Shown here piece by piece: positions 486-32,610 of a DNA stretch of 64,000 bases. Position 1 is the first letter of the stretch. Each line of letters opens with the position of its first letter. A program made the position numbers and the translations under genes. Source of the stretch: an uncultured Gemmatimonadota bacterium (lineage in GTDB: Bacteria; JAAXHH01); NCBI GenBank assembly GCA_951812955.1, contig OX638340.1, positions 1,248,001 through 1,312,000 of the forward strand, given 5' to 3'. Below the pieces are notes generated by a model that ran no database searches, was not told where the DNA came from, and worked only from the letters and a program-made list of their open reading frames with translations.

Positions 486-695
486 CAATTCCCCTGAACT
501 GGTTTTTCGTTGCTGAACGGTTTTTACATTACTTTACTGGATATTCGTGTCCTGTTTCCGGTCCCCTGACTACGGGTAGTTTACCGGTTCTGCGCCTTAC
601 ATTCGGCGTCCCGTAATTTACCCATCTTGACGTGGTAAATCAAGTTACTACTTTATAGGTAACCGAATACCGAATTTGATTCCGAAGGGTCCGTC

Positions 696-3638: not shown

Positions 3639-4040
3639 AGTAGAAGCCTTAATTCAGAAGAAGGATCGGTCGGAGTCTTTGATAGTTGAATCGTTACGTA
3701 CCCTGGGATTCAAAGCGCTCCGTCAATATGGTTCGACGGAAATCATGAAACAAGGGTTTACCCGTTGGCGATAGATCGCGTCAGGTCAGCATCGCTCAAT
3801 CCTGTGGTGACAAACTTAATTACAGCTTCCGGTGCACCTGCTCCGATTCTGTTTTACCACGTCGGGCAAGAGGGTTTGCTAGCCAAGGCGATGCGGTTTA
3901 TATTGACCGCGCGCGGGATATCGCAGATTGATTGTCCTGCCTGCACAGAATGAACTTATTCTAATGTTTTTGTGGGTGCGTCCACGCTCCTGAACCTGAT
4001 GAGTTTAACCCTTAAAAGCTGGACACAGGGCATTGGAATT

Positions 4041-5207
4041 ATGGATCTGCCACTGAAATACGGACTCAATCCCCATCAGCATCCCGCCCGGGTGACCCTG
4101 CCTCCCTCATCACCGCTGCGCGTGCTAAACGGCACACCAGGCTATGTCAATATCATCGACGCCATGGGCGCCTGGCAACTGGCACGGGAATTGAAACAGG
4201 CGACCGGAGTGCCGGGTGCGGCATCCTTCAAACACGCGAGTCCAGCCGGAGCGGCGATTGCCGGCGAACTTAGTGATACCTATCTTTCGTCCCAGTTTCT
4301 GGCCGGTAAGGCGTACTCACCGGGTGCTGCCGCCTATATCCGTGCCCGAGGCGGCGACCGCATGTGTTCCTTCGGGGACGCCGCGGCCGTGAGCGAGGTG
4401 GTGGACCGGACCCTGGCCAACTTGTTAAGGCGGGAAGTGTCCGACCTGATCATCGCGCCGGGATACGATAGGGACGCGTTGGAGATCCTCAGTGCAAAGA
4501 AGGGCGGAGGCTACCTCGTGCTGGAGATCGATCCGGACTACGAGCCGCCCGAGATAGAGCAGAGAACGCTGTTCGGTCTTCAACTGGAACAACCCCGCAA
4601 CGATGCAGCCATCAACCGGGATACTTTTTCCAATATCGTTACCGGCAATCGGGACATTCCGGATTCCGCCCTCGACACGCTCGTCGTGGCGACGATCGCG
4701 CTCAAATACACGCAGTCGAATTCCGTCTGCGTGGCCTACGACGGCCAGGTGATCGGCATGGGCGCGGGCCAGCAATCCCGGATTCACTGCACCCGGCTGG
4801 CCTGCGACAAGGCCGACAAGTGGTTCCTGCAACAGCATCCCCGGACACTGGATCTCCCCTTCCGCGAGGGACTCAAACGCACGAAAAAGACGAACCTCGT
4901 CGACCAGTACCTCCTGTGGGACCAACTTTCCACCACGGAGGAGAACCACAAGCTGGACGGCCTTTCGGCACGTCCGGCACCCATCTCTTCAGAAGAACGC
5001 CGGGAATACCTTGCCCGATTCGACGGAATCTGCCTGTCATCGGACGCCTACATACCCTTTCGCGACAACATCGACCGGGCCAGCCGGAGCAACGTGCAAT
5101 TCGTGGCGCAGACCGGCGGGTCGGCGGCGGATAAGGGCGTGACGGAAGCGGCCGATGAATACGGCATGGCGATGGTCCATACCGGGCTACGGCTGTTTTT
5201 GCACTAG
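4041..5207 (+). CDS. AICAR transformylase-like protein (PurH C-terminal AICARFT domain only, no MGS/IMP cyclohydrolase domain)
   Basis: LKYGLNPHQ, FKHASPAGAA, IAPGYDRDALEIL, PFRDNID and C-terminal GGSAADKGVTEAADEYGMAMVHTGLRLFLH align with PurH residues ~200-529. Start at the internal ATG (MDLPLKYGLNPHQ) chosen by the domain boundary; the ORF-track start at 3972 is possible. Confidence 0.75.
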   Translation: MDLPLKYGLNPHQHPARVTLPPSSPLRVLNGTPGYVNIIDAMGAWQLARELKQATGVPGAASFKHASPAGAAIAGELSDTYLSSQFLAGKAYSPGAAAYIRARGGDRMCSFGDAAAVSEVVDRTLANLLRREVSDLIIAPGYDRDALEILSAKKGGGYLVLEIDPDYEPPEIEQRTLFGLQLEQPRNDAAINRDTFSNIVTGNRDIPDSALDTLVVATIALKYTQSNSVCVAYDGQVIGMGAGQQSRIHCTRLACDKADKWFLQQHPRTLDLPFREGLKRTKKTNLVDQYLLWDQLSTTEENHKLDGLSARPAPISSEERREYLARFDGICLSSDAYIPFRDNIDRASRSNVQFVAQTGGSAADKGVTEAADEYGMAMVHTGLRLFLH

Positions 5208-5366
5208 CGACGGCCGTGGTGGCTTCTACTGTGACATTTCTTGCAGGACCACTTTCAATCGCACTGGAAAATCCGTCAGGATCCTTTCAACCCCCTTCTC
5301 GATGAAAGCCCGCAAGCTTCAGCGGTGTCCGCGAAGAAAACACGGACGGTAGTGAAAGGGCTTCGA

Positions 5367-6764
5367 GTGACACGCAAGCCGAATATCATCTATCTGCTGG
5401 CGGACGACTGGGGATACGGGGATGTAAGCTGTCTCAATCCCGATTCCAAAATCCCGACGCTGCATACCGATCGGCTCGCAGGCGAAGGGATGGTGTTTAC
5501 GGATGCCCACAGCAATTCCGCGGTATGCACGCCCACGCGATACGGCGTGCTGACGGGACGTTACTGCTGGCGATCGCGGCTGAAGCGCGGGGTCTTGAAC
5601 GGCTATTCCGAACCGTTGATCGAGGAGGGACGCATGACGGTCCCTACGCTGCTTCGCGACCAGGGATATACGACGGCCTGCGTGGGCAAGTGGCACCTGG
5701 GACTGGGCTGGCAGACCTCCGGAGGAGTGGAGACGGTAAATAAGGAGACGGTGCGTTTCTCCGCTCCTTTGTCCCATGGTCCCCATACGGTGGGATTCGA
5801 CCATTCATACATCATCCCGGCGTCCCTCGATATGGAGCCCTACTGCTATATCGAAGATGGGGAGGTCGTGGAGCTTTCGGTCGAAGAGATAGCGGACTCG
5901 CCTCGGCCGGCCTTTTGGCGTGGAGGGGCCTGCGCGCCGGGGTTTTCCCATGAGACCTGCCTGCTGGAACTGACGATGCGGGCCGAGGGATTTATCCATC
6001 GGCACGCGAAAGAACATGGCGATCGGCCATTCTTTCTTTACTTCCCCGCACCTTCTCCCCATACGCCTCATTTTTCGCGAGACCGATTTGCCGGCCGGAG
6101 CCAGGCGGGCGTGTATGGAGATTACGTGACGGAGCACGACTGGAGTATCGGGCGAATCCTGGAGGCGGTGAAGCGCAATGGCCTGGAGGAGAATACGCTG
6201 ATTATCGTGACGAGTGACAATGGCTGCCACGCAGAGCCTATCGGGTTGAAGGAAAAGTATGATCACCTTGGAAATTACGTTTTCCGGGGTCAGAAGTCAG
6301 ATGCCTGGGACGGCGGTCACCGCATCCCGTTTATCGCGTCGTGGCCGGGCGTGATCGAACCAGGGTCACGATGTGAAAAGACGGTTTGTCTGACGGATCT
6401 GCTTGCGACCGTTGCCGGGATCTGCGAAGTGGACCTGCCGGTAGACGCCGGCGAAGACAGCTGCAATATCCTGCCCTATCTGCGGGGCGAACAGGCAGAG
6501 ACGATCCGTGAAGCGACGGTGCATCACTCGATCAGCGGGGAATTCGCCATACGGAAGGACAGGTGGAAGCTGGTAGAATGCCGCGGTTCGGGTGGGTGGA
6601 CCCTGAAAGAATCGGATGTGCCCGGGGATGCGCCGCCGATGCAACTCTACGATATGGTTTCCGATCCGGGAGAACGGTTAAACCTGTTTAGCAAAAAGCC
6701 CGGTGTGGTCGAGGATTTGCTCGACACGCTGAATCGGTACCGGACCGGCGGCCGGAGCACGTGA
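5367..6764 (+). CDS. formylglycine-dependent sulfatase (arylsulfatase family), no signal peptide
   Basis: NIIYLLADDWGYGD...CTPTRYGVLTGRY (CxPxR) and ...GKWHLG. The ORF-track start at 5241 is TTG. GTG at 5367 (VTRKPNIIYL) has AAAGGG 7 nt upstream; GTG at 5352 is also possible. No hydrophobic N-terminal segment in any version. Confidence 0.8.
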   Translation: MTRKPNIIYLLADDWGYGDVSCLNPDSKIPTLHTDRLAGEGMVFTDAHSNSAVCTPTRYGVLTGRYCWRSRLKRGVLNGYSEPLIEEGRMTVPTLLRDQGYTTACVGKWHLGLGWQTSGGVETVNKETVRFSAPLSHGPHTVGFDHSYIIPASLDMEPYCYIEDGEVVELSVEEIADSPRPAFWRGGACAPGFSHETCLLELTMRAEGFIHRHAKEHGDRPFFLYFPAPSPHTPHFSRDRFAGRSQAGVYGDYVTEHDWSIGRILEAVKRNGLEENTLIIVTSDNGCHAEPIGLKEKYDHLGNYVFRGQKSDAWDGGHRIPFIASWPGVIEPGSRCEKTVCLTDLLATVAGICEVDLPVDAGEDSCNILPYLRGEQAETIREATVHHSISGEFAIRKDRWKLVECRGSGGWTLKESDVPGDAPPMQLYDMVSDPGERLNLFSKKPGVVEDLLDTLNRYRTGGRST

Positions 6765-6765
6765 A

Positions 6766-6850
6766 ACCGCGAGGTAGGTGAGACCTTCGAATCAGGTAAG
6801 GCCGCGAGGTACTTGAGACCGCGAGGCAGGGTAGGCCGCGAGGTACGTGA
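6766..6850. repeat. 4 degenerate copies of a ~20-bp unit centred on CCGCGAGGTA, starting at the sulfatase stop codon
   Basis: Read directly: gtgaAACCGCGAGGTAggtgaga / gtaaGGCCGCGAGGTActtgaga / CCGCGAGGcagggtag / GCCGCGAGGTAcgtgagc, ending at the AAGGAG RBS of the next sulfatase. Confidence 0.55.
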
Positions 6851-6869
6851 GCAAAGGAGTGTGGATGCG

Positions 6870-8714
6870 ATGAACGGCAAGAGACCCAACGTCATACTGG
6901 TTATCACTGACGACCAGGGATACGGGGACCTGGGTTGTACGGGCCACCCCTGGTTGAGGACGCCAAGTATCGATGCATTTCACCGCGACGCGGTCCGCCT
7001 TGCGGATTTCCACGTTTCGCCTCTGTGTACGCCGACGCGCGGAGCCTTGATGACGGGACGGCGACCCGTACGAAACGGCGCATGGGCGACCTGCTGGGGA
7101 CGGTCCATCCTACGGAAGTCCGAGACGACCATGGCGGACGTTTTCAGCGAGGCCGGGTACCGAACCGCCATGTTCGGAAAGTGGCACCTGGGCGACAACT
7201 ATCCCTATCGTCCCCAGGACCGGGGATTCCGGCACGTGGTGGCCCACAAGGGCGGGGGCGTGGGACAGACGCCCGATTTCTGGGGCAACAATTACTTCGA
7301 CGACACCTATTTCCAAAACGGGGAGCCCGTGGAACACGCCGGATACTGCACGGACGTGTGGTTCGACGAGGCGATCCGTTTCATCGAGGGGTGCGCGGCC
7401 GGCCGGTCCGCCGGTTCGTCGCCAGCGCAGAGGCAGCGCCAGGAAGCATCCCCGGCCAGTCCGAACGGAGCGGACAGAGCGGACAGTCCGAACGGAGCGG
7501 ACGGAGCGGACGAGCCGTTCTTCGTTTATCTGGCAACCAACGCACCGCACACCCCTTATCTCGTGTCCGAGGAATACGCCCATCCGTACCAGGGTATTCA
7601 AGATATACCGGAACCCGAGTTCTGCGGAATGATCGCGAACATCGACGAGAATTTCGGCCGACTGCGGCGTACGCTGGCACAACTGGGTCTGGAAGAAAAC
7701 ACCATCCTGGTCTTCATGACCGACAACGGGAGCTCCGGTGGCAGTGAACTCGATGAAAACCAGCACGCGGTGCGAGGTTACAACGCGGGGATGCGGGGCA
7801 AGAAGGGCTCCTACTACGACGGCGGTCATCGCGTGCCCTTCTTCCTTCGCTGGCCTGGAGGCGGTCTCGGGGGAGGACGTGACGTGGACGAGATGACCCT
7901 CCACGTAGACATCCTGCCGACACTCGTCGCGTTGTGCGGGTTGGACGAACCCGATGTGGACTTCGACGGGGTCAGTGTGGCGCCGCTACTTCGTGGTGAG
8001 CGGTCGGGCCTGCCCGGCGACCGGGTGCACTTTCTTCAGTACCGGCAGGATACCGTGCCTCCGGAGAAATGGACCAGCGCGGTCATGACCCGACGTTGGC
8101 GGCTGGTGCGGGGAAAGGAACTGTACGATATCAAGGCCGATCCGGGACAGTGGTGTGATGTCGCCCGGGAGCATCCCGACGTGGTGGACCGGCTGCGATG
8201 TAATCACGACGCCTGGTGGGACGAGATATCACCCGGTCTCGATGTGTATTGCCCCATCGAACTGGGAAGCCCCGCCGAGAATCCCACCCGCCTCTGCGCC
8301 ATGGACGTCCTTGGCGACGTGGCCTGGCACCAGACCCATATTGCCCGGGCACAGGAGAGCAGCGGGACCTGGGCCGTCGAGATCGAAAGGCCGGCCCGCT
8401 ACCGGTTCAATCTTCGCCGGTGGCCCGCCGAACGCGAGCTTGCGATCGACGGCGTGATACCGCCGGACGAGGCGCGCCGCCTTATCTATGCGCCTGAAGA
8501 TGCGGGCGCGCTGGCCATTCAGCCCGTCGAAGCACGCCTGTCCCTGTTCGGTCAAACACACCGCATGACAGTGAGTAAAGGCGATACGGCCGTCGAATTC
8601 ACCCTCGAAATCACACATACGGGTGTGACGAACCTGGAAGCCTCCTTCGTCGACGTGACCGGAGATGCCAGGGGAGCGTTCTATGTGGATGTCGAGCGGC
8701 TGGATGAGGTTTAG
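6870..8714 (+). CDS. formylglycine-dependent sulfatase, no signal peptide, with an acidic low-complexity insertion
   Basis: ATG at 6870 preceded by AAGGAG. NVILVITDDQGYGD...CTPTRGALMTGR...GKWHLG. Insertion SPASPNGADRADSPNGADGADEP is encoded by an 18-bp nucleotide repeat at ~7440-7515. Confidence 0.85.
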   Translation: MNGKRPNVILVITDDQGYGDLGCTGHPWLRTPSIDAFHRDAVRLADFHVSPLCTPTRGALMTGRRPVRNGAWATCWGRSILRKSETTMADVFSEAGYRTAMFGKWHLGDNYPYRPQDRGFRHVVAHKGGGVGQTPDFWGNNYFDDTYFQNGEPVEHAGYCTDVWFDEAIRFIEGCAAGRSAGSSPAQRQRQEASPASPNGADRADSPNGADGADEPFFVYLATNAPHTPYLVSEEYAHPYQGIQDIPEPEFCGMIANIDENFGRLRRTLAQLGLEENTILVFMTDNGSSGGSELDENQHAVRGYNAGMRGKKGSYYDGGHRVPFFLRWPGGGLGGGRDVDEMTLHVDILPTLVALCGLDEPDVDFDGVSVAPLLRGERSGLPGDRVHFLQYRQDTVPPEKWTSAVMTRRWRLVRGKELYDIKADPGQWCDVAREHPDVVDRLRCNHDAWWDEISPGLDVYCPIELGSPAENPTRLCAMDVLGDVAWHQTHIARAQESSGTWAVEIERPARYRFNLRRWPAERELAIDGVIPPDEARRLIYAPEDAGALAIQPVEARLSLFGQTHRMTVSKGDTAVEFTLEITHTGVTNLEASFVDVTGDARGAFYVDVERLDEV

Positions 8715-8774
8715 AGCCGGCCTGCTGTTCGACTATCTGTGGCTCGGATCGAATGTGAAACCGAAGCGTAAGAC

Positions 8775-9713
8775 CTAAGCCGTCACCCCGTGACGGATGC
8801 CAAGCGCCCCGGAGAACCTTTCGATGGAAGTCGCCAGCCCGTCGATCAGTCCCTCGTCAAAGGCTGTCAACCTGGCGTCCGTAGATCGGCAGCGCGTGGT
8901 GATGGGCAATCCGACGCGTTGCAGGTACCGCTTGCAGGTCACGAGGTACTTGTTGTTCACGACCGGCGCCAGGGCAGTCATCATCCGTTGTACCTCCTCC
9001 GCCGTTTCCGGCTGTCCGTCATATTCCGCGCACAGCCAGGAGAACAGTTCGGGAAACACGTTGGCGGCAACGGGCGAAATGCCCGCGGCGCCGTGGCGCA
9101 GCCCCTCGAGACCGGTTTCGAAATGGGCGTTGTAGACACCGAGCCGCGTAGACCTTACAGCGTCGATCTTCCGCCTTAGTATATCGATATTGCAGGCGGT
9201 ATCCTTGTGATATAGGAACCTGTCTGTGCTGCCGAAATGACCGAAGAGACCGGGCGAAATGAGCCGGTGATAGGGCGTTGGACATTCGTAGAGACCCAGC
9301 GGGACAGGGTCGGTCAGTTCGAGCAACCGCTCCATATTCCGTTTAAGCACTTCCTCGCTCTCGTCCCGGCCGGCCAGCAGGCAAACGATGACGACTACCG
9401 CGTCCACGCCCGTACCGGCCATGCGCCGGACGAAATCGGCCTGGCCGTCGACCGGACCGCCGAAGGTGCCAGTCGCGACCACCGGTACCCGTCCGCCGGC
9501 CCGCTGTACGACGCGGCGGGTCACCTCCAGGCGTTCGTCATCGTCCAGGTGAAACATCTCGCTTGAACCACAGCAGGCAAAGAGTCCGGCCGATCCTCTT
9601 TCGATGTACCAGTCGGTCAGGGCATCCACGCCCCGCCAGTCGATGGATCCGTCTTCGTGAAAGGCGTTGAGCATCACCGGCCAGAGGCCGCGTGGCAGTT
9701 TATTCATAGACAT
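8775..9713 (-). CDS. DapA/NAL-family class I aldolase (dihydrodipicolinate synthase / N-acetylneuraminate lyase-like)
   Basis: MSMNKLPRGLWPVMLNAFHEDGSIDWRGVDALTDWYIERGSAGLFACCGSSEMFHLDDDERLEV matches the DHDPS-family N-terminal pattern. Start set at a true internal ATG; the ORF-track upstream extension is unlikely. Confidence 0.65.
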   Translation of the reverse strand: MSMNKLPRGLWPVMLNAFHEDGSIDWRGVDALTDWYIERGSAGLFACCGSSEMFHLDDDERLEVTRRVVQRAGGRVPVVATGTFGGPVDGQADFVRRMAGTGVDAVVVIVCLLAGRDESEEVLKRNMERLLELTDPVPLGLYECPTPYHRLISPGLFGHFGSTDRFLYHKDTACNIDILRRKIDAVRSTRLGVYNAHFETGLEGLRHGAAGISPVAANVFPELFSWLCAEYDGQPETAEEVQRMMTALAPVVNNKYLVTCKRYLQRVGLPITTRCRSTDARLTAFDEGLIDGLATSIERFSGALGIRHGVTA

Positions 9714-9996
9714 GGCGTGGCGTCCTGAGTGGACAGGGCATGGTTCGATTGACTGGAATGAGTTCGCGGTCCAGGGATCATATCCTTTAATCGTCCTCGG
9801 TGTCAAGAATAACCGTACCGAAACAAACGGCCGGACGAACGCCGGTTTTGATTGGCCAGGCACGCGGCGTAGTCCTTTACACCCAACGGCGTCGAAGGTA
9901 TATTTTCGGGTAGCGATCCTGGTATCGCATGGGCGTTTCCAACCCCATTCACAATGACGAATCCGCCATATTTCCGTTCAAAATCGAAAGAAAGCC

Positions 9997-11289
9997 ATGT
10001 CCGTTCTCGGCCTTACCTGTACCCGTTGCGATGCCCAGTATCCACTGGGACCCATGTTCTTCGGTTGTCCCGCTTGCGCTGACGGCCCGGATCGCGGCAC
10101 TGACGACCCCGGTCATGGCGCGGTCGACCTCGGTCGCGGCGCGGCTGCCTTGACCGTGACCTATGACTACCAGGCGATCGCCGCCGAACTGAACGTGGAG
10201 AACTGGAACCGGGCGGGGCACGGCATCTGGCGGTTCGATGCCCTCCTTCCAATTCGGGATCCGTCTGTTCAGATTTCTCTTGGCGAGGGGAACACGGCCC
10301 TTGTGCGGCCCAGGAAAGTCTGCGAAGCGACCGGGTTGTCGAATCTGTTCATAAAGAACGAAACGACCAATCCCACCTGGGCCTTCAAGGACCGCTTCCA
10401 CGCTTCCTCGGTCTCCATGGCGAAGTCCCTGGGCTTCTCCCGGATTACGGCCAGCACCACGGGCAATCACGGCGCTTCGGCCGCGGCCTATGCCGCTGCC
10501 GCGGAGATGGATTCATGCATCATCCTGTGCCACCCGGAATCATCCATGCTCCAGCGGGACATGATCGCCCTGTACGGTGGTCACGCCTTCGTGCTGGAGA
10601 ACCGGTTCAAGTACCTGGACACGCTGATCCGGGATCATGGCTACTATCCCTCCACGACCATGACGCCGATGCCCACCGGTACGCCCTACGGTATCGAGGG
10701 CTACAAGACCATTGCGTTCGAGATCTTCGTACAGCTCGGTGGCCACGTTCCCGACCGTATGTTCTGTCCGATCGCCGCCGGTGATGCGCTTTTCGGTCCG
10801 TGGAAGGGGTTCAACGAGATGCGCCTGCTCGATCTGTCTGATCGGAATCCGGTCATGCACGGTGTCCAGCCGGCGGGATGCAATCCCTACGTACAGTCGT
10901 TCCAGCAGAGACGCAGGGACGTGATCGTCCATCCGGATCCGAGTTCCATCGCCCTTTCCATTCGCGACGACACCGGCGGCCCCTCGGCGCTGCGGGCCAT
11001 ATACGATTCAGGTGGCGACGCGACCGACGTTACCGAAGACGAGATCATCGAGGCGGTGCGCCTGCTCGCGCACAGCGGGTACCTGGTAGAACCCTCCTCG
11101 GCGGCGTCCGTTGCTGGAGCGATCAAGGCGGCCCGGGCGGGTCGACTCGCCCCGGATGAGACCGTCGTCTGCCTGGTCACCGGATCGGGCGCCAAGTGGC
11201 CGGAGGTCATGGCCGAACTCTCCAGTCGAGAAGCGCTCGTCGAGCCCACGTGGGATGAGATCAAGGCGCGGGCAGGCCTCGACGGCTGA
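9997..11289 (+). CDS. threonine-synthase-like PLP enzyme (fold type II) with N-terminal Cys4 zinc ribbon
   Basis: CTRCDAQYP...FGCPAC ribbon, NPTWAFKDR (PLP lysine), STGNHGASAAAYAA. ATG start confirmed. Confidence 0.75.
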   Translation: MSVLGLTCTRCDAQYPLGPMFFGCPACADGPDRGTDDPGHGAVDLGRGAAALTVTYDYQAIAAELNVENWNRAGHGIWRFDALLPIRDPSVQISLGEGNTALVRPRKVCEATGLSNLFIKNETTNPTWAFKDRFHASSVSMAKSLGFSRITASTTGNHGASAAAYAAAAEMDSCIILCHPESSMLQRDMIALYGGHAFVLENRFKYLDTLIRDHGYYPSTTMTPMPTGTPYGIEGYKTIAFEIFVQLGGHVPDRMFCPIAAGDALFGPWKGFNEMRLLDLSDRNPVMHGVQPAGCNPYVQSFQQRRRDVIVHPDPSSIALSIRDDTGGPSALRAIYDSGGDATDVTEDEIIEAVRLLAHSGYLVEPSSAASVAGAIKAARAGRLAPDETVVCLVTGSGAKWPEVMAELSSREALVEPTWDEIKARAGLDG

Positions 11290-11302
11290 CCACTGCAATA
11301 GC

Positions 11303-13816
11303 ATGGCAATGACCACAACCCTTTATATGCTCGCCGACGACCTCGCCGGCGCTCACGACGTGGCGGTTCCCTTCGCGAAGCGCAACTTCGCCGTGGCCGT
11401 ACTGTCCGATCCGAACCGCCTGGATCGATTCGATTCCGCCGACCTGGTTGTGCTGAACACGAACACCCGTTCCTGCAGCGAGTCGGAAGCCGCGGAACGA
11501 GTCGGCGCGGCCTGCGAAGCGGTACGGGTGCGTAACGGTTCGATTATCTACAAGAAGATCGACTCGACCCTGAGGGGGCATGTCGGCCTCGAAATCGACC
11601 TGGTGAGCGAAATGATGGACTTCAATCTGGCCGTATGCGCACCGGCTTTCCCGGAACTCGGAAGGACCACGGTGGGCGGTTATCAACTGCTCCGCGGCAT
11701 GCCCGTCAGCGGCGCGGACATGGCGGGACCCGACATTCCACCGCAACATGCTTTCATTCCGGATCTACTGCATACCGGCTCCGGCAGGAAGACCGTCCTC
11801 GTCGACTTGAAGACCGTCCAGGAAGGCGCGACGGCCATTCGTGAAGCAGTCGCCTGTTTCAGGGCGGTGCCGGGGACCAGGATAGTGGTGGACATGGCAG
11901 ATCCAACGTGCTGGAACGGGCTGCTGGACGCGGTCCTTGAAAACAGCGTGGTGTCGGCCAGGAGTGGATCTCCAGCGGCCGCCACGGCCACTACGCTGCT
12001 CTGCGGCTCAGGTGGAATGGCCGCCGCGCTCGCCGACAGGTTCGCATCCGCACGGGGTCAGCGGGCGTCGTCAACGACCCTGAAGCCGCGCTTCGATAGC
12101 GTTTCCCCGGAATCCAAAAGCCATCCTGTCCTAGTCTTCGCCTGCAGCCTGCACGCCACGACCGCTCGCCAGGTCGAGCAGGTCAGCGGCCGGGACTCGG
12201 TGGTGACCTGCCCCTTCGATCCCCTGTTGATTGTGGACGAAGGGTCCCGGAACGACGAGGTGGATCGACTGGCAGCACGCGTCGCTGAGGTCCTTGCGAA
12301 TGGACGGAACGCCGTCGTAACACCTGTTCGCCCCGGGCGCGGGGGGCGGCGGGCGTGGCTTGAGAGGTTGTCGGCGGCAACAGCCGGCCGCGATCCCGCG
12401 TCTGCAGTCATCGAGAACCTGGGAGAAGTCGCACGCAGACTGTTAACGAGCGTTCGCCCGGAGGGTCTCATACTCACGGGAGGGGAAACCGCCTGCAGCG
12501 TATTTCACGAACTGAACGCGGATGGCGCCTGGGTCCTCGAAGAGATGGATACCGGCGTTGGCCTGGCCGCTGTCGCGGGTGGTCCCCACGATGGAATGGG
12601 TCTGGTCATTAAGCCCGGATCCTTCGGCGACGAGCGGACGCTGGTGCGGGCCATGGAACGGCTCAATTCGCGTTCCAGCGGCTCGCAGGCAGGCGGCGTC
12701 CGTGCCCGTACCGGCGAAAACAGCAGTGGTGCGGATGATCGGCCGGTTGTCGGGATCACCATGGGCGATCCGAACGGCGTGGGACCGGAAGTCATCGTAA
12801 AGATCCTGTCGCAGGAATGGGTCTACGAACTGTGCCGGCCGCTCGTCATCGGGCATGATGAAGTAATCCGCCGGGTCCTCCCGTTGGCACGGACGGGCTC
12901 CTCCAACGGCTGCGATGGCCGTGATACCGGTCCATGCCTCGGAATCCGCCGGGTCGACCGTCCAGGAAACGGCCGGTACCGCCATGGCAAGGTGGACGTC
13001 ATGAACGCCTGGGAGGTGGAAATCGATAAACTTACTCCAGGCCAAGTACAATCCGAAGCCGGTCGTCTAGCCGTGGAATCCGTCAAGCTGGCCGCCCGCA
13101 TGGCGATGGAGGATGAAATCGACGCCGTGGTCACCGCGCCGATGAATAAGGAAGCCATGGGACTTGCCGGCTATGCCTTCGCCGGTCACACCGAATTGCT
13201 TGCCGAAGCCACCGGATCGGCGAAATTCCGGCTTTCGCTGGCCTTCGACGGGATCCTGGTCTCCCACGCGACGACCCACGTATCCCTGAGAGACGCCATC
13301 GACCGTCTTTCCGAGGAGGAAATCCTCGTCACCGTGGACCTGGTCGGCAACGCGCTGGTCGGCATGGGCGTGACCGCGCCCCGGATCGCCGTCTGCGGTC
13401 TGAATCCCCATGCGGGGGAGGGCGGTCTCTTTGGAGACGAGGAAATTCGGATCATCGAACCTGCGCTCGAAAAGGCACGCGAGAGAGCCGTCAACCGTGG
13501 TTGGCAAATTGTCGGCCCATTGCCGCCCGACACCGTGTTCATGCGGGCTCGAAAGGGCGATTTCGACGGGATCGTCGGCATGTACCACGACCAGGGCCAC
13601 ATTCCGGTCAAGGCCATCGCCTTCGACCGCGCGGTCAACGTGACGCTGGGCCTGCCTATCGTCCGCACTTCCGTGGACCACGGCACCGCATTTGATATCG
13701 CGGGCAGGGGCGTAGCCGACGCGGGCAACCTGGGCGAAGCGCTCAGGATGGCCGTGAAGCTGATCGGCGAACAGTGGTCCGTGGGAAACAGAACAGGAGG
13801 GGGTTCCGCGTCATGA
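11303..13816 (+). CDS. fusion of a DUF1537 four-carbon acid sugar kinase (OtnK/DtnK/4-hydroxythreonine kinase family) and a PdxA/PdxA2-family NAD-dependent 4-phospho-hydroxyacid dehydrogenase
   Basis: N-terminal LADDLAGAHDVAVPFAKRNF and later LTGGETACSVFHELNADG...VIKPGSFG match DUF1537 N and C lobes. After a Ser/Gly linker, GITMGDPNGVGPEVIVKIL, LNPHAGEGGLFGDEEIRIIEPA and MYHDQGHIPVKA match PdxA. Start at ATG just after the thrC-like stop; the ORF-track 11111 start lies inside the previous gene. Confidence 0.8.
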   Translation: MAMTTTLYMLADDLAGAHDVAVPFAKRNFAVAVLSDPNRLDRFDSADLVVLNTNTRSCSESEAAERVGAACEAVRVRNGSIIYKKIDSTLRGHVGLEIDLVSEMMDFNLAVCAPAFPELGRTTVGGYQLLRGMPVSGADMAGPDIPPQHAFIPDLLHTGSGRKTVLVDLKTVQEGATAIREAVACFRAVPGTRIVVDMADPTCWNGLLDAVLENSVVSARSGSPAAATATTLLCGSGGMAAALADRFASARGQRASSTTLKPRFDSVSPESKSHPVLVFACSLHATTARQVEQVSGRDSVVTCPFDPLLIVDEGSRNDEVDRLAARVAEVLANGRNAVVTPVRPGRGGRRAWLERLSAATAGRDPASAVIENLGEVARRLLTSVRPEGLILTGGETACSVFHELNADGAWVLEEMDTGVGLAAVAGGPHDGMGLVIKPGSFGDERTLVRAMERLNSRSSGSQAGGVRARTGENSSGADDRPVVGITMGDPNGVGPEVIVKILSQEWVYELCRPLVIGHDEVIRRVLPLARTGSSNGCDGRDTGPCLGIRRVDRPGNGRYRHGKVDVMNAWEVEIDKLTPGQVQSEAGRLAVESVKLAARMAMEDEIDAVVTAPMNKEAMGLAGYAFAGHTELLAEATGSAKFRLSLAFDGILVSHATTHVSLRDAIDRLSEEEILVTVDLVGNALVGMGVTAPRIAVCGLNPHAGEGGLFGDEEIRIIEPALEKARERAVNRGWQIVGPLPPDTVFMRARKGDFDGIVGMYHDQGHIPVKAIAFDRAVNVTLGLPIVRTSVDHGTAFDIAGRGVADAGNLGEALRMAVKLIGEQWSVGNRTGGGSAS

Positions 13817-15615
13817 AGTCCAAACACCTGGGCCGTGACGGACGGTCCAAGGACTCCGGCCCGAAGGACGCCGCCGGAAGCCATATTTTTTTGCCGAAAA
13901 AGTCTCCTGCCGCCGGCCTACGCCGTTCGTCCATCTCCGGCCGGTGGTATCCGGCTATCCTTGCGGCTGCCTTCCTGGGATGCGCGGGCGTGCTGGTCGC
14001 CCGAACCTTGCCGATGATCCCGCAGGGCGACGCCCCGGTCTTCAACTCCATCGGCAAGCAGTTGCCGCCCGATGCTGCGCCGCTCGAATTCCAGACCTAC
14101 CGGTTCATGCGCGACGAGCCCCGAAGCCTGGACGTCAGCGTCAATCTCTACGTGGGGCAGTGGAACGAGTTCCTCTTCGAGACCCTGGTCGCGAAGGACG
14201 AAAACGGCGACCTCATCCCGGCCGCGGCGGATCGCTGGGAGATCTCGCCCGACGGAAAAACCTGGACCTTCTTCCTGCGGAAAACGGGACGGTGGAGCGA
14301 CGGAAGGCCCGTCACGGCCCACGATTTCGTTTACACTTTCCGCCGTTCCCTGTCCTACGAGACGGCCAATCCATACGCCGCCTTCTACAGCGACATCGTG
14401 GGCGCAAAAACCTACAGCCAGACCCCTAACGCCGATCCCTCCATGCTGGGCGTCAGGGCGATCGACGACCATACGCTGACGGTCGAAACCACCCACCCGG
14501 CGCCCTACCTCGGCCTCATCCTTTCCGTCCCCACTTCCATGCCAGTGCCCCGGTGGCAGGTGGAAAAGCATGGTCCCAGATGGACCGAGGAAGGGAATTG
14601 CGTATCCAACTCGAGCTATCGATTGACGGAGTGGAAACATGGCAGCCACATGGATTTCGAACTCAATCCCCACTACGACGGTCCCATCAAGGGCTATGTG
14701 GAAAAAATAAACCGGGTATTCCGTCATCCGTCTACGGCCAACCTGCTCCCTTATGAAAACGACGAGGTGGGTTTTGCCGAGGTGCAGGCCAACGAATTGA
14801 TTCGCGTGCAGCGCGACCCCGGATTGCATGCGGAACTGATCTCGAATCCGACGGACGGCACGTGGTACATCTTCTTTAATACACGGCAACCGCCCTTCAG
14901 CGATGCCAGGGTCCGGCGCGCCATCGCCCGGGCCATCGATCGCGAGACGATCTGCCGCGTAGTGCTGCACGGCGCCGCGGTTCCCGCCTATTCCATGCTG
15001 CCGGTCACGTTCGACGCCCACGGCGACTACAGGGAGTTCCAGGAGTTCGATCCGTCAAAGGCGCGGGAACTCCTGGCCGATGCGGGGTATCCCGGCGGCC
15101 GTGGATTCCCCAGGATGGAGATGTGGCTCCGGCAGCCGAGGCCGGATATCAGGATGGTCGCGGAAGTGATCCAGGGCATGCTGAATGAGCACCTGGGCGT
15201 CGATATCACGTTCCGAAGCGCGGATTACCCGGTTTTCACCAATTACATGTTCAACTGGAACATCGATCTTGGACTGGTGCCCTTCTTCGGGGATTACCGC
15301 GATCCCAAGAACATGCTGGACATGATCTGGCGCCCCGGAACCCGCGGGCGCAGCCGACACGATTTCGAGCACACGGAATTCGAGGCGTTGCTGGACGCCG
15401 CGGATCAGGAAATAGATCCGGATAAACGGACCGGGATCTTCCGCCGGGCAGAGCGCATCCTGGTAGAGGAATCGGGAGCCGCTTTCGTCTTCCACCCCAT
15501 GGCCAATTCCCTGTTCAAGCCATGGCTCAGGGGACTCAAAACCAACCGATTCGGCGGAAAAACCGTGATCTTCACAGATTTATATATCGGCGAGGATTTT
15601 TCCGGGGCGAGGTAG
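13813..15615 (+). CDS. ABC transporter solute-binding protein, family 5 (DppA/OppA-like), orphan (no permease/ATPase genes adjacent)
   Basis: ~600 aa with signal-like N-terminus (WYPAILAAAFLGCAGVLVA) and family-5 SBP length and blocks. ATGA overlap with the preceding fusion gene (translational coupling). Confidence 0.8.
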   Translation: MKSKHLGRDGRSKDSGPKDAAGSHIFLPKKSPAAGLRRSSISGRWYPAILAAAFLGCAGVLVARTLPMIPQGDAPVFNSIGKQLPPDAAPLEFQTYRFMRDEPRSLDVSVNLYVGQWNEFLFETLVAKDENGDLIPAAADRWEISPDGKTWTFFLRKTGRWSDGRPVTAHDFVYTFRRSLSYETANPYAAFYSDIVGAKTYSQTPNADPSMLGVRAIDDHTLTVETTHPAPYLGLILSVPTSMPVPRWQVEKHGPRWTEEGNCVSNSSYRLTEWKHGSHMDFELNPHYDGPIKGYVEKINRVFRHPSTANLLPYENDEVGFAEVQANELIRVQRDPGLHAELISNPTDGTWYIFFNTRQPPFSDARVRRAIARAIDRETICRVVLHGAAVPAYSMLPVTFDAHGDYREFQEFDPSKARELLADAGYPGGRGFPRMEMWLRQPRPDIRMVAEVIQGMLNEHLGVDITFRSADYPVFTNYMFNWNIDLGLVPFFGDYRDPKNMLDMIWRPGTRGRSRHDFEHTEFEALLDAADQEIDPDKRTGIFRRAERILVEESGAAFVFHPMANSLFKPWLRGLKTNRFGGKTVIFTDLYIGEDFSGAR

Positions 15616-15687
15616 GACTTCGGGGCAGGGCGATGCAAGGCGAGCGAAGCGTCCCGAGGGGGACACTCGCCGCCATCAGGCCGCCGA

Positions 15688-15777
15688 TTACTTCTTCTTA
15701 TGCCTGTCGGCCCGCAAGCGTTTCTTGCGCTTATGGGTAGCGATCTTCGACCGCTTACGCTTCTTACCACTGGGCAC
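15688..15777 (-). CDS. ribosomal protein bS22-like mini-protein (Bacteroidetes/Actinobacteria type)
   Basis: Not in the ORF track (29 aa). Minus-strand GTG...TAA encodes MPSGKKRKRSKIATHKRKKRLRADRHKKK, immediately downstream of HU with AAGGGAG upstream. Closely resembles the Flavobacteria/Mycobacteria bS22 family from memory. Confidence 0.55.
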   Translation of the reverse strand: MPSGKKRKRSKIATHKRKKRLRADRHKKK

Positions 15778-15794
15778 GTCTGTCTCCCTTTGTG

Positions 15795-16076
15795 TTAGTT
15801 TTCCTTCTGTACACGGTTTTTAAGATGATCTGACGGTTTGAAAACAGGCACCACGCACGGCGGGATCCTGATCCCCGTACCGGTCTTCGGATTGCGGGCG
15901 ACGCGCGCCTTCCTTTCCTTCACCTTGAATATACCGAATCCACGCAGTTCAATCTTCTCGCCCCTGCCTAGTGCCGACGAGATGGAATCCAGCAACGCGT
16001 TCAACACTTCAGCTGTGTCCACCTTGGTCATCCCCGTGGACTGCGCTATTCGTGCCACGATATCGGCCTTAGTCAT
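15795..16076 (-). CDS. hup: HU-family DNA-binding protein
   Basis: MTKADIVARIAQ...RGFGIFKVKERKARVARNPKTGTGIRIPPCVVPVFKPSDHLKNRV. Strong AAGGAG RBS. Confidence 0.9.
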   Translation of the reverse strand: MTKADIVARIAQSTGMTKVDTAEVLNALLDSISSALGRGEKIELRGFGIFKVKERKARVARNPKTGTGIRIPPCVVPVFKPSDHLKNRVQKEN

Positions 16077-16106
16077 ACCATTCTCCTTGATCGTTGGTGT
16101 TGCCGT

Positions 16107-16985
16107 TCAGCGATACCGGTATTCGACGATTCCCGGTGAATACAGACTTGTCACCGAATCCATGTTATCCATCAGCAATTCGAAAAAGGATTTGGGGCGT
16201 TGCCGGACCACGTTGGGTTTGCCCGGAAGACCGGCCATCCTGCCGGCCATGGCGATCGCGTCCTGGTAGGTTCCCAGGCGGTCCACGAGCCGCAGGGGAA
16301 GTGCCTGATTGCCCGTGTATATCCGCCCGTCGGCCAGTTCAACGACTTCTTCCCGCGAAAGCGGCCTGAATTGCGTGACCGCTTCGACGAACTGATCGTA
16401 GACATCGTCCACAACCGACTGGAGCAGTCCAACCTCCGTATCCGTCATGCCCCGGGCAACCGAACCGATATCCTTGTGCCTTCCGCTCTTTACGACCTGC
16501 CAGTCGATACCCACCTTTTCCAGCAGGCCTTCGGCTTGCGGTACCACCATGATCACGCCGATACTGCCCGTTAGCGTACCCGGATTGGCCATGATGGAAT
16601 CCGCCGCGCAGGCAATATAGTAACCGCCCGACGCAGCCACGCTTCCCATGGACGCCACGATGACCTTTCCCGCTTCACGGGTCTTCCGCAGTTCATCGAA
16701 GATCTCCTGCGTGGGGGCCACGGCGCCGCCGGGACTCTCGACGCGTAGCACTACGGCCCGCACGGAATCGTCCTCGCGATACTTGATGATCTGGCTGACC
16801 GTGTCGTCGGACCGGGTGATCGGACCCCTGACTTCGACCAGTGCGACCCGGCCATCGCCCATGCCGGAAAAGGACTTTTCACTGCTCAACATGGGACCGA
16901 CGATCAGCAGCACCATGACGATGGCGATAACCAGTACCCCGCCGCCGAGCATTCCGCCGATAATCCAGTCTGATTTTCGAGCCAT
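16107..16985 (-). CDS. sppA: signal peptide peptidase SppA (S49, 36K type)
   Basis: N-terminal TM then VALVEVRGPI..., VVLRVESPGG, ASMGSVAASGGYYIA (Ser nucleophile), SIGVIMV. The ORF-track start at 17000 is TTG; ATG at 16985 with GGAG upstream preferred. Confidence 0.8.
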   Translation of the reverse strand: MARKSDWIIGGMLGGGVLVIAIVMVLLIVGPMLSSEKSFSGMGDGRVALVEVRGPITRSDDTVSQIIKYREDDSVRAVVLRVESPGGAVAPTQEIFDELRKTREAGKVIVASMGSVAASGGYYIACAADSIMANPGTLTGSIGVIMVVPQAEGLLEKVGIDWQVVKSGRHKDIGSVARGMTDTEVGLLQSVVDDVYDQFVEAVTQFRPLSREEVVELADGRIYTGNQALPLRLVDRLGTYQDAIAMAGRMAGLPGKPNVVRQRPKSFFELLMDNMDSVTSLYSPGIVEYRYR

Positions 16986-17045
16986 TACAATGCTCCGCAA
17001 TCCCGCGTCGCGTACAAATTCCAGTACAGTCCAGGATCATTTTGG

Positions 17046-17098: not shown

Positions 17099-18919
17099 TT
17101 AGGAATCGGACGGATCGATGTGGAGCCGGTCGCCGGGGTGTATGGCGCTGCGCCGGCCCAGTCCGTTCGTCCTGCGCAGTGCGCTCACGGTCACGTTGTG
17201 GGCCCGCGCGATTTCCCAGAGGGTGTCGCCGGGTTTTACGGTGTAGATGATGGTGCCGGGCGCCGATGCGCTGCCCGCGCCGCGATTCGTTCCGTCTCCC
17301 GTACCGGACGTTCGAGTCGAGGACGAAGCGCCTCCGTCCGCGGCGCCGCGCGGCCGCGGGACATAGATGGTCAGGCTGCGGCCGGCAATGATATCACCCG
17401 GATTGTTCAGCTTGTTCCAGTCCTGCAGGTTTGCCATGGAAACGCTGTATCTTCTTCCGATACGTGCCAGCGTATCGCCCCGCCTGATCCGGTAGGATAT
17501 GGCTCGATGGGTCGCTGGATCGGGCGGTGCTACGTCCCTGGGCCGCCGATTTGAAATGGATCGATTCGACGAACGGATCGACGAGCCGAATAGCGGTATG
17601 GCGAGCACCTGGCCGATCCGCAGCCGGTTAGGACGGCGTATGCTGTTTTCGACGACGATATCCCTCGTACTTACTCCGAAACGGCGGGAAATACGCCCCA
17701 GGGTGTCTCCTCTCCGGACTTTGTAAAACGCCATGTCGGATGGATCCGGTCCGGGCGGTTCGATGCCGGCCCACGTGGTGTAGGACCGCTTCGTTCCCAG
17801 CGGAACGTTGAGGTCGAACCCCGGCACAGCCTTCCAGCGGCGCAGTTCCGGGTTCAGTTCACGCAGTTTCTCGACCTGGATCTTCATGCCCTCGGCCACT
17901 TCTTCCAATACCATGGCCCGCTGCACCGGAACGGATTCGTGTATCAGCGGCAGGCCTCCCAGGGGATCGAATCCATATTCCTCCGGCGTCTTTGCGATGA
18001 CGGCCGACGCCATGACGAAGGCAACGAAGTGAATCGAACGGCCGGGCAGTCTCATGTTCCAGAGACTCAGGCCTTGCGCTGTTCGCACCGGCTCGGATCC
18101 GGCATGGTGCGCCGCCATTACGAGATCCCAACTGCCCAGTTCCAGATAGAGATCCTTGAACCTGGCCACCGCCGCGCGCGTGGACTTCTCAGGATCGTAA
18201 CGCTCGTCGACCTCGTCGCTTCGGGCCAGGCCGTAACGGTCCGCGTCTTCCAGAGAAAGTTGCCACAAACCCGCCCTGCCATCTCCGGAGCGCGCCCTGG
18301 GGTCGAAGCCGCTTTCGACCATGGCGACGTAGACCAGGTCGTCCGGAAGACCGGATCTGGAAAGAATCGACTGGATCATGGCCCGGTACCGGTTCGTCCG
18401 GCTCAGCCACCCTGTGAAAATGCCGGAAGCATCGTTCCGCAGGACTTGAATCGCCCTTTTCACCCGGTCGTCGTAGCTTATGGGAACGTCGAACCGGCCG
18501 AAATCGGGCCATGGTGGTTCAACCGCTGGAACGCGGTCAAATCCATCCACGTAGGATGCGAGGAGTGAAAAACCTTCGGCGCCGGACCTTTCTTCGAGGT
18601 AAGTGTCCGTCGTCGAACCCGCATCCGCCGTGACGGAATCGGTTGCAGGATGGCGCTCCCTCGCGTCGGAATCCGCGGTGATTCCCTGATTTCCTTCAAA
18701 GGCCGTAGTCGCGCTAGTATCGGGTAAATGGAAAGGAGCATACAAAAATACCGACGCTGAAATCGAAGTAGCGTCGGTTGGCGAGTCCACGGCGGCGGGG
18801 GAGGCCGCATGGAGGACGGCGTGAGACGGGCACAGGAAAGCCAGGCAGATCGTCAGCCGCCACAGGGTGCGTAAACGGCTGGCCGGTATACTGCGATTTA
18901 CCGTGCAGATGGTACTGAG
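17099..18919 (-). CDS. membrane-bound lytic murein transglycosylase (MltD-like): SLT domain plus three C-terminal LysM domains
   Basis: VYVAMVESGFDPRARSGDGRAGLWQL (SLT catalytic Glu block). Three LysM units: YKVRRGDTLGRISRRFGVS, YRIRRGDTLARIGRRYSVS, YTVKPGDTLWEIARAHNVT. Start set at the ATG that precedes a signal peptide (RLRTLWRLTICLAFLCPSHAVLHAA); ATG at 19039 is the alternative. Confidence 0.8.
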   Translation of the reverse strand, partial: LSTICTVNRSIPASRLRTLWRLTICLAFLCPSHAVLHAASPAAVDSPTDATSISASVFLYAPFHLPDTSATTAFEGNQGITADSDARERHPATDSVTADAGSTTDTYLEERSGAEGFSLLASYVDGFDRVPAVEPPWPDFGRFDVPISYDDRVKRAIQVLRNDASGIFTGWLSRTNRYRAMIQSILSRSGLPDDLVYVAMVESGFDPRARSGDGRAGLWQLSLEDADRYGLARSDEVDERYDPEKSTRAAVARFKDLYLELGSWDLVMAAHHAGSEPVRTAQGLSLWNMRLPGRSIHFVAFVMASAVIAKTPEEYGFDPLGGLPLIHESVPVQRAMVLEEVAEGMKIQVEKLRELNPELRRWKAVPGFDLNVPLGTKRSYTTWAGIEPPGPDPSDMAFYKVRRGDTLGRISRRFGVSTRDIVVENSIRRPNRLRIGQVLAIPLFGSSIRSSNRSISNRRPRDVAPPDPATHRAISYRIRRGDTLARIGRRYSVSMANLQDWNKLNNPGDIIAGRSLTIYVPRPRGAADGGASSSTRTSGTGDGTNRGAGSASAPGTIIYTVKPGDTLWEIARAHNVTVSALRRTNGLGRRSAIHPGDRLHIDPSDS

Positions 18920-19046
18920 CATAGTGAGCGCTGTATACGAAAATCCGACTGCGTTCGATGGATCTTTACAGGCCGATGGGTCGGCCGGAACCTCGGTCAG
19001 TCCAACAGGCACTGACATTCGGGATGAGGTCGCCACCATCGGGTAG

Positions 19047-23732: not shown

Positions 23733-23747
23733 GGAAAGGAAATTGAA

Positions 23748-24803: not shown

Positions 24804-24876
24804 GGGATTGACGGAAATTCGCACACGCAACCGCTCGCGTACCTGATGCATGAAGTCTGGGTCACAAAGCACGTCG

Positions 24877-25077
24877 TCTCGAGCCGTGTCGTTATGAGCC
24901 GCGTCGATCAATGGACACGTAAGCGCAAGCTGCGGAGTCATGAGCCGCGTTGATCAATGGACACGTATGCGCAAGCTGCGGAGTCATGAGCCGCGTTGAT
25001 CAATGGACACGTATGCGCAAGCTACGGAGTCATGAGCCGCGTTGATCTCAGACTGCGCGTCATGAGCAGCGTCGAGT
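24877..25077. repeat. 46-bp tandem direct repeat, ~4 copies (tcatgagccgcgttgatcaatggacacgtatgcgcaagctgcggag), degenerate at both ends
   Basis: Read directly. Period of 46 bp measured between successive tcatgagccgcg occurrences. Confidence 0.85.
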
Positions 25078-26254: not shown

Positions 26255-26295
26255 CGGTTGATAGGAGAGGGCCGCGACAACGGCGTCTCTGCTTG

Positions 26296-30053: not shown

Positions 30054-30061
30054 ACGGAACG

Positions 30062-32567: not shown

Positions 32568-32610
32568 TCTGGAGAACCTGCGGCACAGCACAGCAAAAAC
32601 ATCCGGAACC

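Follow-up and report, generated by a model that had tools for sequence, protein, structure and literature searches.

Among the closest described relatives of the locus reported here is a two-enzyme system; Zhang et al. reportedly described, in 2016, a pathway in which a DtnK/DenK kinase and PdxA2 degrade D-threonate and D-erythronate. In this work, we analyzed a window of 64,000 nucleotides (the whole stretch of DNA; positions 1,248,001 to 1,312,000 of the forward strand of contig OX638340.1, assembly GCA_951812955.1) from an uncultured Gemmatimonadota bacterium, in which a DUF1537-type kinase and a PdxA2-type dehydrogenase are joined in one 837-amino-acid (aa) open reading frame (ORF) directly behind the gene of a threonine-synthase-like (ThrC-like) enzyme dependent on pyridoxal 5'-phosphate (PLP). 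On balance, and by a modest degree, we favor the view that this ORF would encode a bifunctional kinase/oxidative decarboxylase of the known DUF1537/PdxA2 type, acting on threonate, erythronate, or 4-hydroxythreonine and conserved with its ThrC-like partner as a core.

Kinases of the DUF1537 family serve mainly in four-carbon (C4) acid-sugar catabolism, the phosphorylation of 4-hydroxythreonine being a demonstrated extra activity, and PdxA2 is able to perform the PdxA reaction (PMC7954711; PMC9997740). Researchers have found that ThrB and PdxA of Escherichia coli draw 4-hydroxythreonine into PLP synthesis (PMC3010111). The early steps of vitamin B6 synthesis are a long-standing gap, and a natural 4-hydroxythreonine route is "yet to be found" (PMC9997740). 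Fusion of the two activities is also on record, as DUF1537/PLP/kinase is listed among the fusions of unknown domains with B-vitamin genes that led to functional discovery (Henry et al. 2016, PMC4921024 Table 4), where Thiaville et al. (2016) are credited with finding the kinase function from a DUF1537-PLP-gene fusion. Fused proteins already stand in NCBI and UniRef under the name "PdxA", so the architecture is known, and the novelty that a first-pass annotation of this DNA had seen in it falls away. As represented in PMC4921024 Table 4 and PMC9997740, the DUF1537-PdxA2 fusions of Thiaville et al. (2016) have the same architecture as the protein in the window and the same possible 4-hydroxythreonine side route, whereas those of Burkholderia stand in a quite different, catabolic-looking context. 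The multidomain L-threonate enzyme LTD of plants is likewise a natural fusion of a DUF1537 kinase with enzymes of a C4 acid-sugar pathway, but its partners in the available part of its description are LtnD (LtnD1/LtnD2) and OtnC-type domains, not PdxA (PMC12540250).

Compared with the DtnK/DenK-PdxA2 system (Salmonella PdxA2; 2hi1, 6e85), the window holds the same families in the same order, a DUF1537 kinase and then a PdxA2-type oxidative decarboxylase; its PdxA half scores about 276 bits against 2hi1 and 6e85 with motifs in common, and DtnK is the best model for its kinase half. It differs in having one polypeptide, scores below the equivalog cut-offs, and a ThrC-like neighbor, and in lacking a catabolic-type transporter or regulator.

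Results

The fused ORF opens with the ATG at 11303, closes with the stop codon at 13814-13816, and contains no internal stop. The 838 aa given previously hold as one polypeptide and become 837 aa once the stop codon is not counted. A stop or frameshift between the two halves was looked for and none was found in the ORF. Three Pfam domains cover it (Table 1), the NBD_C match spanning the full model (1-168 of 168) and the PdxA match (PF04166) spanning residues 509-817 with 331.7 bits against a cut-off of 27. In the AlphaFold model, the kinase and PdxA modules are both confidently folded (the SBD_N lobe mostly at a predicted local distance difference test score (pLDDT) of 80-92), and the linker, with pLDDT below 50 at residues 457-477, is the sole long inter-domain stretch that is so low; the predicted template modeling score of 0.56 for the fused protein leaves the relative orientation of the modules undefined. 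Linker length differs among fused homologues (alignment, n=15).

Homologues were counted from a protein search as clusters at 90% identity, covering 77 relatives. Over 50 of the clusters, with identities of 45-99%, have the same three-domain architecture and derive from numerous independent assemblies labeled Gemmatimonadetes or Latescibacteria, and more distant fused proteins were found in Burkholderia and in one eukaryotic transcriptome. Because more than 50 clusters from independent assemblies share the architecture, the fused ORF is, on this comparison, a genuine single protein and no sequencing artefact. Unfused forms within the clade make up 17 clusters; in one such locus (L090), the synteny is identical, the kinase and PdxA genes are 10 nt apart, and the stop and restart fall at the linker region. 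In a neighbor-joining tree of the kinase half, which carries no support values, all deep branches are fused and unfused forms are nested in at least three places, and since they nest within all-fused deep branches, the tree suggests that the unfused members arose by secondary fission in the linker.

In distant lineages the separate arrangement prevails. A genome contig scan gave 80 species-level loci of distant PdxA2 relatives, a set used for the fused-versus-separate count and not for close relatives; among the matches listed, the DUF1537 kinase is a separate adjacent gene in 56, fused in two (a Verrucomicrobiae metagenome-assembled genome and Rhodococcus qingshengii), not nearby in 21, and in another gene orientation in one. 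The statement that kinase and PdxA2 are usually separate neighbors is thus borne out, the two activities can be regarded as an established pair since 56 of these loci have them adjacent and two more have them fused, and the fusion, with 2 against 56 of 80 and in several lineages, is a minority yet recurrent state. The distant fused kinase-PdxA of Burkholderia sp. (L004/L005, about 5900-13100), 36% identical to that of the window, has a different operon, which comprises a DHDPS-family gene, an Fe-ADH gene, the fusion, and genes for an SSF transporter, a sialidase-like BNR protein, and a DeoR regulator.

The kinase half is assigned by its domains and motifs to the DUF1537 four-carbon acid-sugar kinase family. 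The conserved motifs of that family were looked for and are all present, with DDxxG, KKxDSxxRG, and PAFPxxGR in SBD_N and TGGETA and KxGxFG in NBD_C invariant among 15 fused homologues (columns D12, D13, G16, K84, K85, D87, S88, R91, G92, P114-P117, R121, T392-E395, K437, G439, and G442); we take these residues to be the ATP and substrate contacts. Of the named models, that of D-threonate kinase, NF047819, fits best (175.6 bits, E 1.5e-51), OtnK comes next with 114 bits, and NF042436 stays far below its cut-off (33.3 vs 700).

The PdxA half passes the pdxA model TIGR00557 (334.4 vs 290.35), and GHTE, NPHAGE, MYHDQGH, and RTSVDHGTAFD are invariant among the same 15 homologues. Its similarity to solved PdxA2 and D-threonate-4-phosphate dehydrogenases (4jqp, 6e85, 2hi1; 276-280 bits) is higher than to the listed PdxA chains of E. 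coli, Salmonella, and Pseudomonas (1ps6/1ps7, 1r8k, 1yxo; 192-201 bits), and APMNKEAM (APxNKEA), GHTELL, and MYHDQGHIPVK agree with PdxA2. With canonical PdxA, it has the fold and the metal and substrate motifs (NPHAGE, DHGTAFD) in common, but canonical PdxA reads P-V-H-K-G, GHTEF, and HDQGLPVLK where the window reads P-M-N-K-E-A, GHTELL, and HDQGHIPVK. The comparison of PdxA and PdxA2 motifs across loci is confounded, the scan pattern itself having contained MYHDQGH. A stand-alone PdxA of 371 aa, 51% identical to the PdxA half of the window, was seen in a Latescibacterota contig of 3.1 Mb (L014, 7941-9056); it has the same PdxA2-type motifs, no kinase nearby, and GNAT, DUF6785, and helicase genes as neighbors.

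The loci of the clade that were read come from Gemmatimonadetes (L001, L002, L090), Latescibacteria (L003), Zixibacteria (L091), and unlabeled metagenomes (L092-L095). Wherever both genes of a clade locus are readable, the kinase/PdxA gene directly follows the ThrC-like gene; from the ThrC-like stop to the fusion start, nine of the ten loci have a spacer of -4 to +44 nt, and L003 has one of 19 or 121 nt, by the start chosen. Over the ten loci, identity is 32-100% for the kinase half and 66-100% for the ThrC-like protein, and the genes further upstream of the ThrC-like gene vary. The ThrC-like neighbor is absent from all 80 distant kinase/PdxA2 loci among the matches listed; the pairing is clade-specific and exceptionless within the clade. 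A consensus scan for sigma-70-like promoters gave divergent candidate sites in the intergenic region upstream of the ThrC-like gene (Table 1), one of which serves the DHDPS-like gene, none at the thrC-like/fusion or fusion/SBP (solute-binding protein) junctions, and a weak promoter-like match (9/12) at 13023-13052, within the fusion gene. Rfam gave no match over 8500-16200, either to a riboswitch or to any other RNA. Because of the tight spacing, the varying upstream flanks, and the promoter-like site only upstream of the ThrC-like gene, the conserved unit is, as read from the gene arrangement, a two-gene operon core of the ThrC-like enzyme followed by the fusion. We found no description of a ThrC-like pairing with kinase/PdxA in the searchable literature, and as far as that literature shows, the strict coupling to a ThrC-like family is an undescribed variant. 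The single conserved cluster proposed at first, which also took in the DHDPS-like and SBP genes, thereby shrinks to these two genes. An undescribed hydroxy-amino-acid route, also proposed then, or a PLP-related one may exist, the tight ThrC-like pairing being its only basis.

The ThrC-like protein is, judged by its fold and motifs, a non-canonical relative of threonine synthase and a fold-type II PLP enzyme. Its AlphaFold model has a pLDDT of 90 and in fold resembles threonine synthases most (30-32% identity; Foldseek probability 1.0). The cysteines of its N-terminal Zn ribbon (C8, C11, C24, C27) are invariant across the family, as is K131, which aligns with the PLP (Schiff-base) Lys61 of the Thermus enzyme. 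The small bacterial type of threonine synthase (6cgq, 2zsj, 2d1f, 1uim) has the same fold, PLP lysine, and C-terminal TGxGxK, but the ThrC-like protein differs by the N-terminal Zn ribbon, replaced motifs, and scores below the cut-offs: it reaches 241.5 against 303 for NF006050 and 156.4 against 167.1 for TIGR00260, other threonine synthase equivalogs are lower still, and ten further relatives are likewise below the NF006050 cut-off. Four solved threonine synthases from four phyla have STGNT, NSxNPxRxEGQKT, and PVGNAGN in common, whereas TTGNH, PxxPGxEGYKT, and P(I/V)AAGDA stand in their place in the ThrC-like protein and in about 118 homologues, the most distant of them 37% identical. The altered positions presumably include the phosphate contacts Asn154, Ser155, Arg160, and Asn188 of the Thermus threonine synthase. 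These scores and replaced motifs rule out a canonical threonine synthase, and they weaken the earlier idea that the product of the fusion resembles threonine-synthase substrates.

The ThrC-like family comprises more than 500 proteins, with the threonine synthase motifs replaced throughout, and its context was read from loci L086-L089 and L096-L173. Distant members stand beside an amino-acid permease and a PAP2 phosphatase, or beside a D-serine-dehydratase-like gene and an FAD oxidase; other neighbors are luciferase-like monooxygenases (16 loci), M24/creatinase-like genes (10 loci), M20 hydrolases, creatininase, Liv-type ABC genes, and amidohydrolases. No DUF1537 or PdxA gene lies beside distant members in the loci read, and among 80 metagenomic ThrC-like loci the fusion is present only in two, those at least 68% identical. 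The gene context of this large, uncharacterized family suggests amino-acid catabolism. The family with TTGNH and PGxEGYK is widespread, and its JGI label is often "threonine synthase" despite the missed NCBI cut-offs.

The positions of the DHDPS-like, ThrC-like, fusion, and SBP genes were confirmed, as were the domain assignments, the Ser/Gly linker, and the ATGA overlap (Pfam, AlphaFold, and sequence); all features are given in Table 1.

Table 1 Features at the ThrC-like/fusion locus, in window positions
Feature	Position	Strand	Evidence
DHDPS-family (class I aldolase-like) gene, 312 aa, divergent; not DapA	8775..9713	-	PF00701 81.6 bits
Intergenic region, 283 bp, divergent sigma-70-like candidate sites 9876-9904 (+) and 9806-9777 (-)	9714..9996	.	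Consensus scan 10/12 and 11/12
Threonine-synthase-like PLP enzyme, 430 aa, N-terminal 4-Cys Zn ribbon, PALP fold	9997..11289	+	PALP PF00291 208.6 bits
Fused gene, 837 aa: DUF1537-type four-carbon acid kinase, linker, and PdxA2-type dehydrogenase	11303..13816	+	Uninterrupted ORF, three Pfam domains
Kinase substrate-binding lobe, Pfam SBD_N (PF07005)	11321..11947, residues 7-215	+	149.7 bits vs cut-off 25
Kinase nucleotide-binding lobe, Pfam NBD_C (PF17042)	12131..12643, residues 277-447	+	87.9 bits vs cut-off 28.3
Ser/Gly-rich inter-domain linker	12671..12742, residues ~457-480	+	Low pLDDT
PdxA-family domain, probable PdxA2 type	12743..13762, residues ~481-820	+	PF04166 331.7 bits
Family-5 SBP, OppA/MppA-like, lineage-variable neighbor	13813..15615	+	SBP_bac_5 272.5 bits
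HU	15795-16076	-	Pfam; context
S49 peptidase (SppA-like)	16107-17000	-	Pfam; context
SLT/LysM transglycosylase (MltD-like)	17099-19039	-	Pfam; context

The DHDPS-like gene most likely starts at the ATG at 9713, which gives 312 aa as in its relatives; the maximal ORF has 362 aa and extends to 9863. It had been described as a divergent DapA-like aldolase, and the family and the divergent strand are right, but the gene is not DapA: it scores 55 against a cut-off of 206 for TIGR00674, and it keeps the Schiff-base Lys and the Tyr but has lost the Arg138 position of DapA, with PGRTG changed to PTPYH. It is present only in loci of a Gemmatimonadota subclade (L001, L090) and absent from Latescibacteria, Zixibacteria, and the other clade loci. 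Weak DHDPS-family matches were also seen less than 8 kb from kinase/PdxA2 pairs in L025, L052, L061, L071, L077, and L083.

The SBP gene, whose start codon (ATG at 13813) shares the sequence ATGA with the stop codon of the fusion, is an orphan as first described, with no permease or ATPase gene adjoining it in the window. Its closest structures are E. coli OppA (211 bits) and the murein-peptide binder MppA (201 bits), and it reaches 224 against a cut-off of 947 for the OppA equivalog NF011684. A C4-acid binder was considered and rejected. L092 lacks the SBP gene, L003 carries it inverted, and L093 has it at a distance of 51 nt. It and the DHDPS-like gene are lineage-specific neighbors, and the SBP gene probably does not belong to the operon core. 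The next genes, HU, S49 peptidase, and SLT/LysM transglycosylase, look like a housekeeping block and keep the same order in L001, L003, L090, L092, and L093 at only 42-58% protein identity. Together with the ThrC-like/fusion pair, they form an unusually stable order for seemingly unrelated functions across Gemmatimonadota, Latescibacteria, and relatives. Because HU, S49, and SLT are equally syntenic, the gene order is partly simple inheritance.

Elsewhere in the window, six PhyH-family (phytanoyl-CoA dioxygenase-like) genes were observed, five at 28192-34306 and one, fused to HEAT repeats, at 696-2147, as well as three sulfatases at 5241-8714; these genes point to an organism that lives by scavenging, possibly in association with a host or in the sea. 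The ORF at 3972-5207 (L001 1656-2822; L090 611-1720), of about 370-410 aa, matches AICARFT/IMPCHase only from profile position 78 on, is not a normal PurH, and is conserved beside GDPD and sulfatase genes in relatives. A fusion of a PTP-like phosphatase (PTP-SAK) with an ADP-ribosylglycohydrolase (19473-20948) has the same position in L001, L002, and L090. At 31200-32329, an enolase-superfamily ORF (253 aa), which has the N-terminal MR_MLE domain and no other, overlaps the start of a following ORF of 123 aa with a very low third-position GC content (GC3) of 0.36, and this gene may be truncated or frameshifted. Long ORFs (253-632 aa) at 22680-26347, 44950-46038, 47402-49300, and 54749-56101 have no Pfam match and a GC3 of 0.59-0.64, below that of their neighbors, and may be foreign DNA; a tyrosine recombinase gene lies at 41142-42053.

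Discussion

If the 837-aa protein is a bifunctional enzyme of the DUF1537/PdxA2 type, as the two families lead us to expect, its N-terminal two-lobed kinase would use ATP to phosphorylate the 4-hydroxyl (O4) of a C4 2-substituted 3,4-dihydroxybutanoate, and its C-terminal PdxA2-type dehydrogenase, which would be metal- and NAD(P)+-dependent, would oxidize C3 of the 4-phospho product, after which the beta-keto acid would lose CO2. D-threonate or D-erythronate would yield dihydroxyacetone phosphate, and 4-hydroxy-L-threonine would yield 3-amino-2-oxopropyl phosphate. The disordered linker would hold the two activities at 1:1, and channeling of the phospho-intermediate would be possible. On sequence similarity, an acid sugar appears slightly more likely as the substrate. 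Nevertheless, several observations weigh against this assignment. Both halves stay below the cut-offs of the specific models (175.6 vs 450 for DtnK NF047819, 114.1 vs 350 for 3-oxo-tetronate kinase OtnK NF043035, and 304.7 vs 583 for D-threonate-4-phosphate dehydrogenase NF002891), and the kinase half shares no more than about 22-38% identity with PdxA2-adjacent kinases of other phyla and diverges fast in its own clade, with 32-37% identity between phyla. PdxA2-type motifs also occur in stand-alone, kinase-less genes of Latescibacterota, Nitrospirae, and Planctomycetota, and the PdxA/PdxA2 motif split, which was drawn from proteobacteria, may not be transferable to Latescibacterota-like phyla. 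The locus holds no acid-sugar transporter, no DeoR/GntR regulator, and no LtnD, OtnI, or OtnC genes, and it sits within a housekeeping block (HU, SppA-like, MltD-like). The sole strictly conserved partner is an amino-acid-type PLP enzyme, which 4-hydroxythreonine fits better than a sugar acid; with its partner, its surroundings, and the lack of a sugar-acid transporter or regulator, the locus context favors an amino-acid substrate.

These observations lead to the alternative that the fusion together with the ThrC-like enzyme is a natural module for 4-hydroxy-L-threonine, either as an upstream branch of vitamin B6 synthesis dependent on 1-deoxy-D-xylulose 5-phosphate (DXP) in phyla without Epd/PdxB, or for the detoxification or recycling of 4-hydroxythreonine. 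The kinase would then make 4-phosphohydroxythreonine, the PdxA domain would convert it to 3-amino-2-oxopropyl phosphate for PdxJ, and the ThrC-like enzyme would make, interconvert, or remove 4-hydroxythreonine or its phosphate. The strictly conserved partner speaks for such a module, as 4-hydroxythreonine would be the only amino acid to suit both fused activities, and so do the housekeeping setting without regulator or sugar transporter, the TIGR00557 score of the PdxA half, the reported capacity of DUF1537 proteins to phosphorylate 4-hydroxythreonine and of PdxA2 to do the PdxA reaction (PMC7954711; PMC9997740), and the E. coli precedent of ThrB and PdxA (PMC3010111). However, neither the 64-kb window nor the flanking regions of relatives contain pdxJ, pdxH, or dxs, the making of 4-hydroxythreonine by a threonine-synthase-type enzyme is no known chemistry, distant members of the ThrC-like family were never beside DUF1537 or PdxA in the loci read, and the stand-alone PdxA of Latescibacterota could be the housekeeping copy. 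Literature searches gave nothing for pdxJ/pdxA in Gemmatimonadetes and nothing relevant for threonine synthase linked to PdxA or 4-hydroxythreonine, and rows for Gemmatimonadetes, Latescibacteria, and Zixibacteria are absent from the supplements of PMC9997740. We regard a 4-hydroxythreonine module as unlikely, if less so than the other alternatives. A bolder form, in which the operon is the natural and primary entry of 4-hydroxythreonine to DXP-dependent vitamin B6 in Gemmatimonadota, Latescibacteria, and Zixibacteria, with the ThrC-like family supplying or processing 4-hydroxythreonine, would close the gap that most Gracilicutes are reported to have at Epd/PdxB/SerC; we speculate on it with considerable doubt.

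It is also quite improbable that the DHDPS-like aldolase, the ThrC-like enzyme, the fusion, and the SBP work together in a single pathway that salvages imported C4 hydroxy acids or hydroxy amino acids. The four genes do adjoin in the window and in its close Gemmatimonadota relatives L001 and L090, the ATGA overlap links the fusion to the SBP, and DHDPS-family genes lie less than 8 kb from DUF1537/PdxA2 in the unrelated loci L004/5, L025, L052, L061, L071, L077, and L083, but the DHDPS-like gene is transcribed divergently and confined to one subclade, and the SBP, OppA/MppA-like and without a permease partner, is absent, inverted, or unlinked in L092, L003, and L093, respectively. The equal synteny of HU, S49, and SLT also means that adjacency is partly inherited order.

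The reading in which the ThrC-like enzyme is the real threonine synthase of the organism, the DUF1537 kinase domain replacing homoserine kinase and acting on both homoserine and 4-hydroxythreonine like E. coli ThrB, whose substrates are both of these (PMC3010111), is highly improbable. Threonine synthases are indeed the best fold and sequence matches, the PLP lysine is retained, and the gene order is akin to a thrB-thrC logic; against this stand the replacement of STGNT, NSxNPxRxEGQKT, and PVGNAGN by TTGNH, PxxPGxEGYKT, and PIAAGDA in every family member, the scores below the cut-offs of all threonine synthase equivalogs (for NF006050 in ten relatives as well), and the neighbors of distant members, which are amino-acid permeases, amidohydrolases, creatinase-like, and luciferase-like genes and not threonine biosynthesis. 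Finally, the idea that the fusion stems from misassembly, a frameshift artefact, or pseudogene decay, for which only the close unfused relatives (17 clusters, including L090 with its 10-nt gap) could be cited, deserves next to no credence, and a sequencing artefact is ruled out, given that independent assemblies yield the fusion in over 50 clusters with identities as low as 45%, that other phyla have it too, that the catalytic motifs are intact, and that the deepest branches of the neighbor-joining tree are all fused.

With the bifunctional DUF1537/PdxA2 enzyme as the preferred reading, the fusion alone adds little, since the same architecture first pointed to the kinase function of DUF1537. 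The locus calls for caution in annotating these proteins as PdxA, threonine synthase, or DapA. It also draws attention to a threonine-synthase-like PLP family of more than 500 proteins with a rebuilt active-site motif, widely annotated as "threonine synthase" although uncharacterized; in one clade, this family is tightly linked with a pair of enzymes for which 4-hydroxythreonine would be the sole plausible substrate among amino acids. If this coupling reflects shared metabolites, it would be a testable candidate for a natural 4-hydroxythreonine route to vitamin B6, or for a repair route that deals with a toxic antimetabolite.

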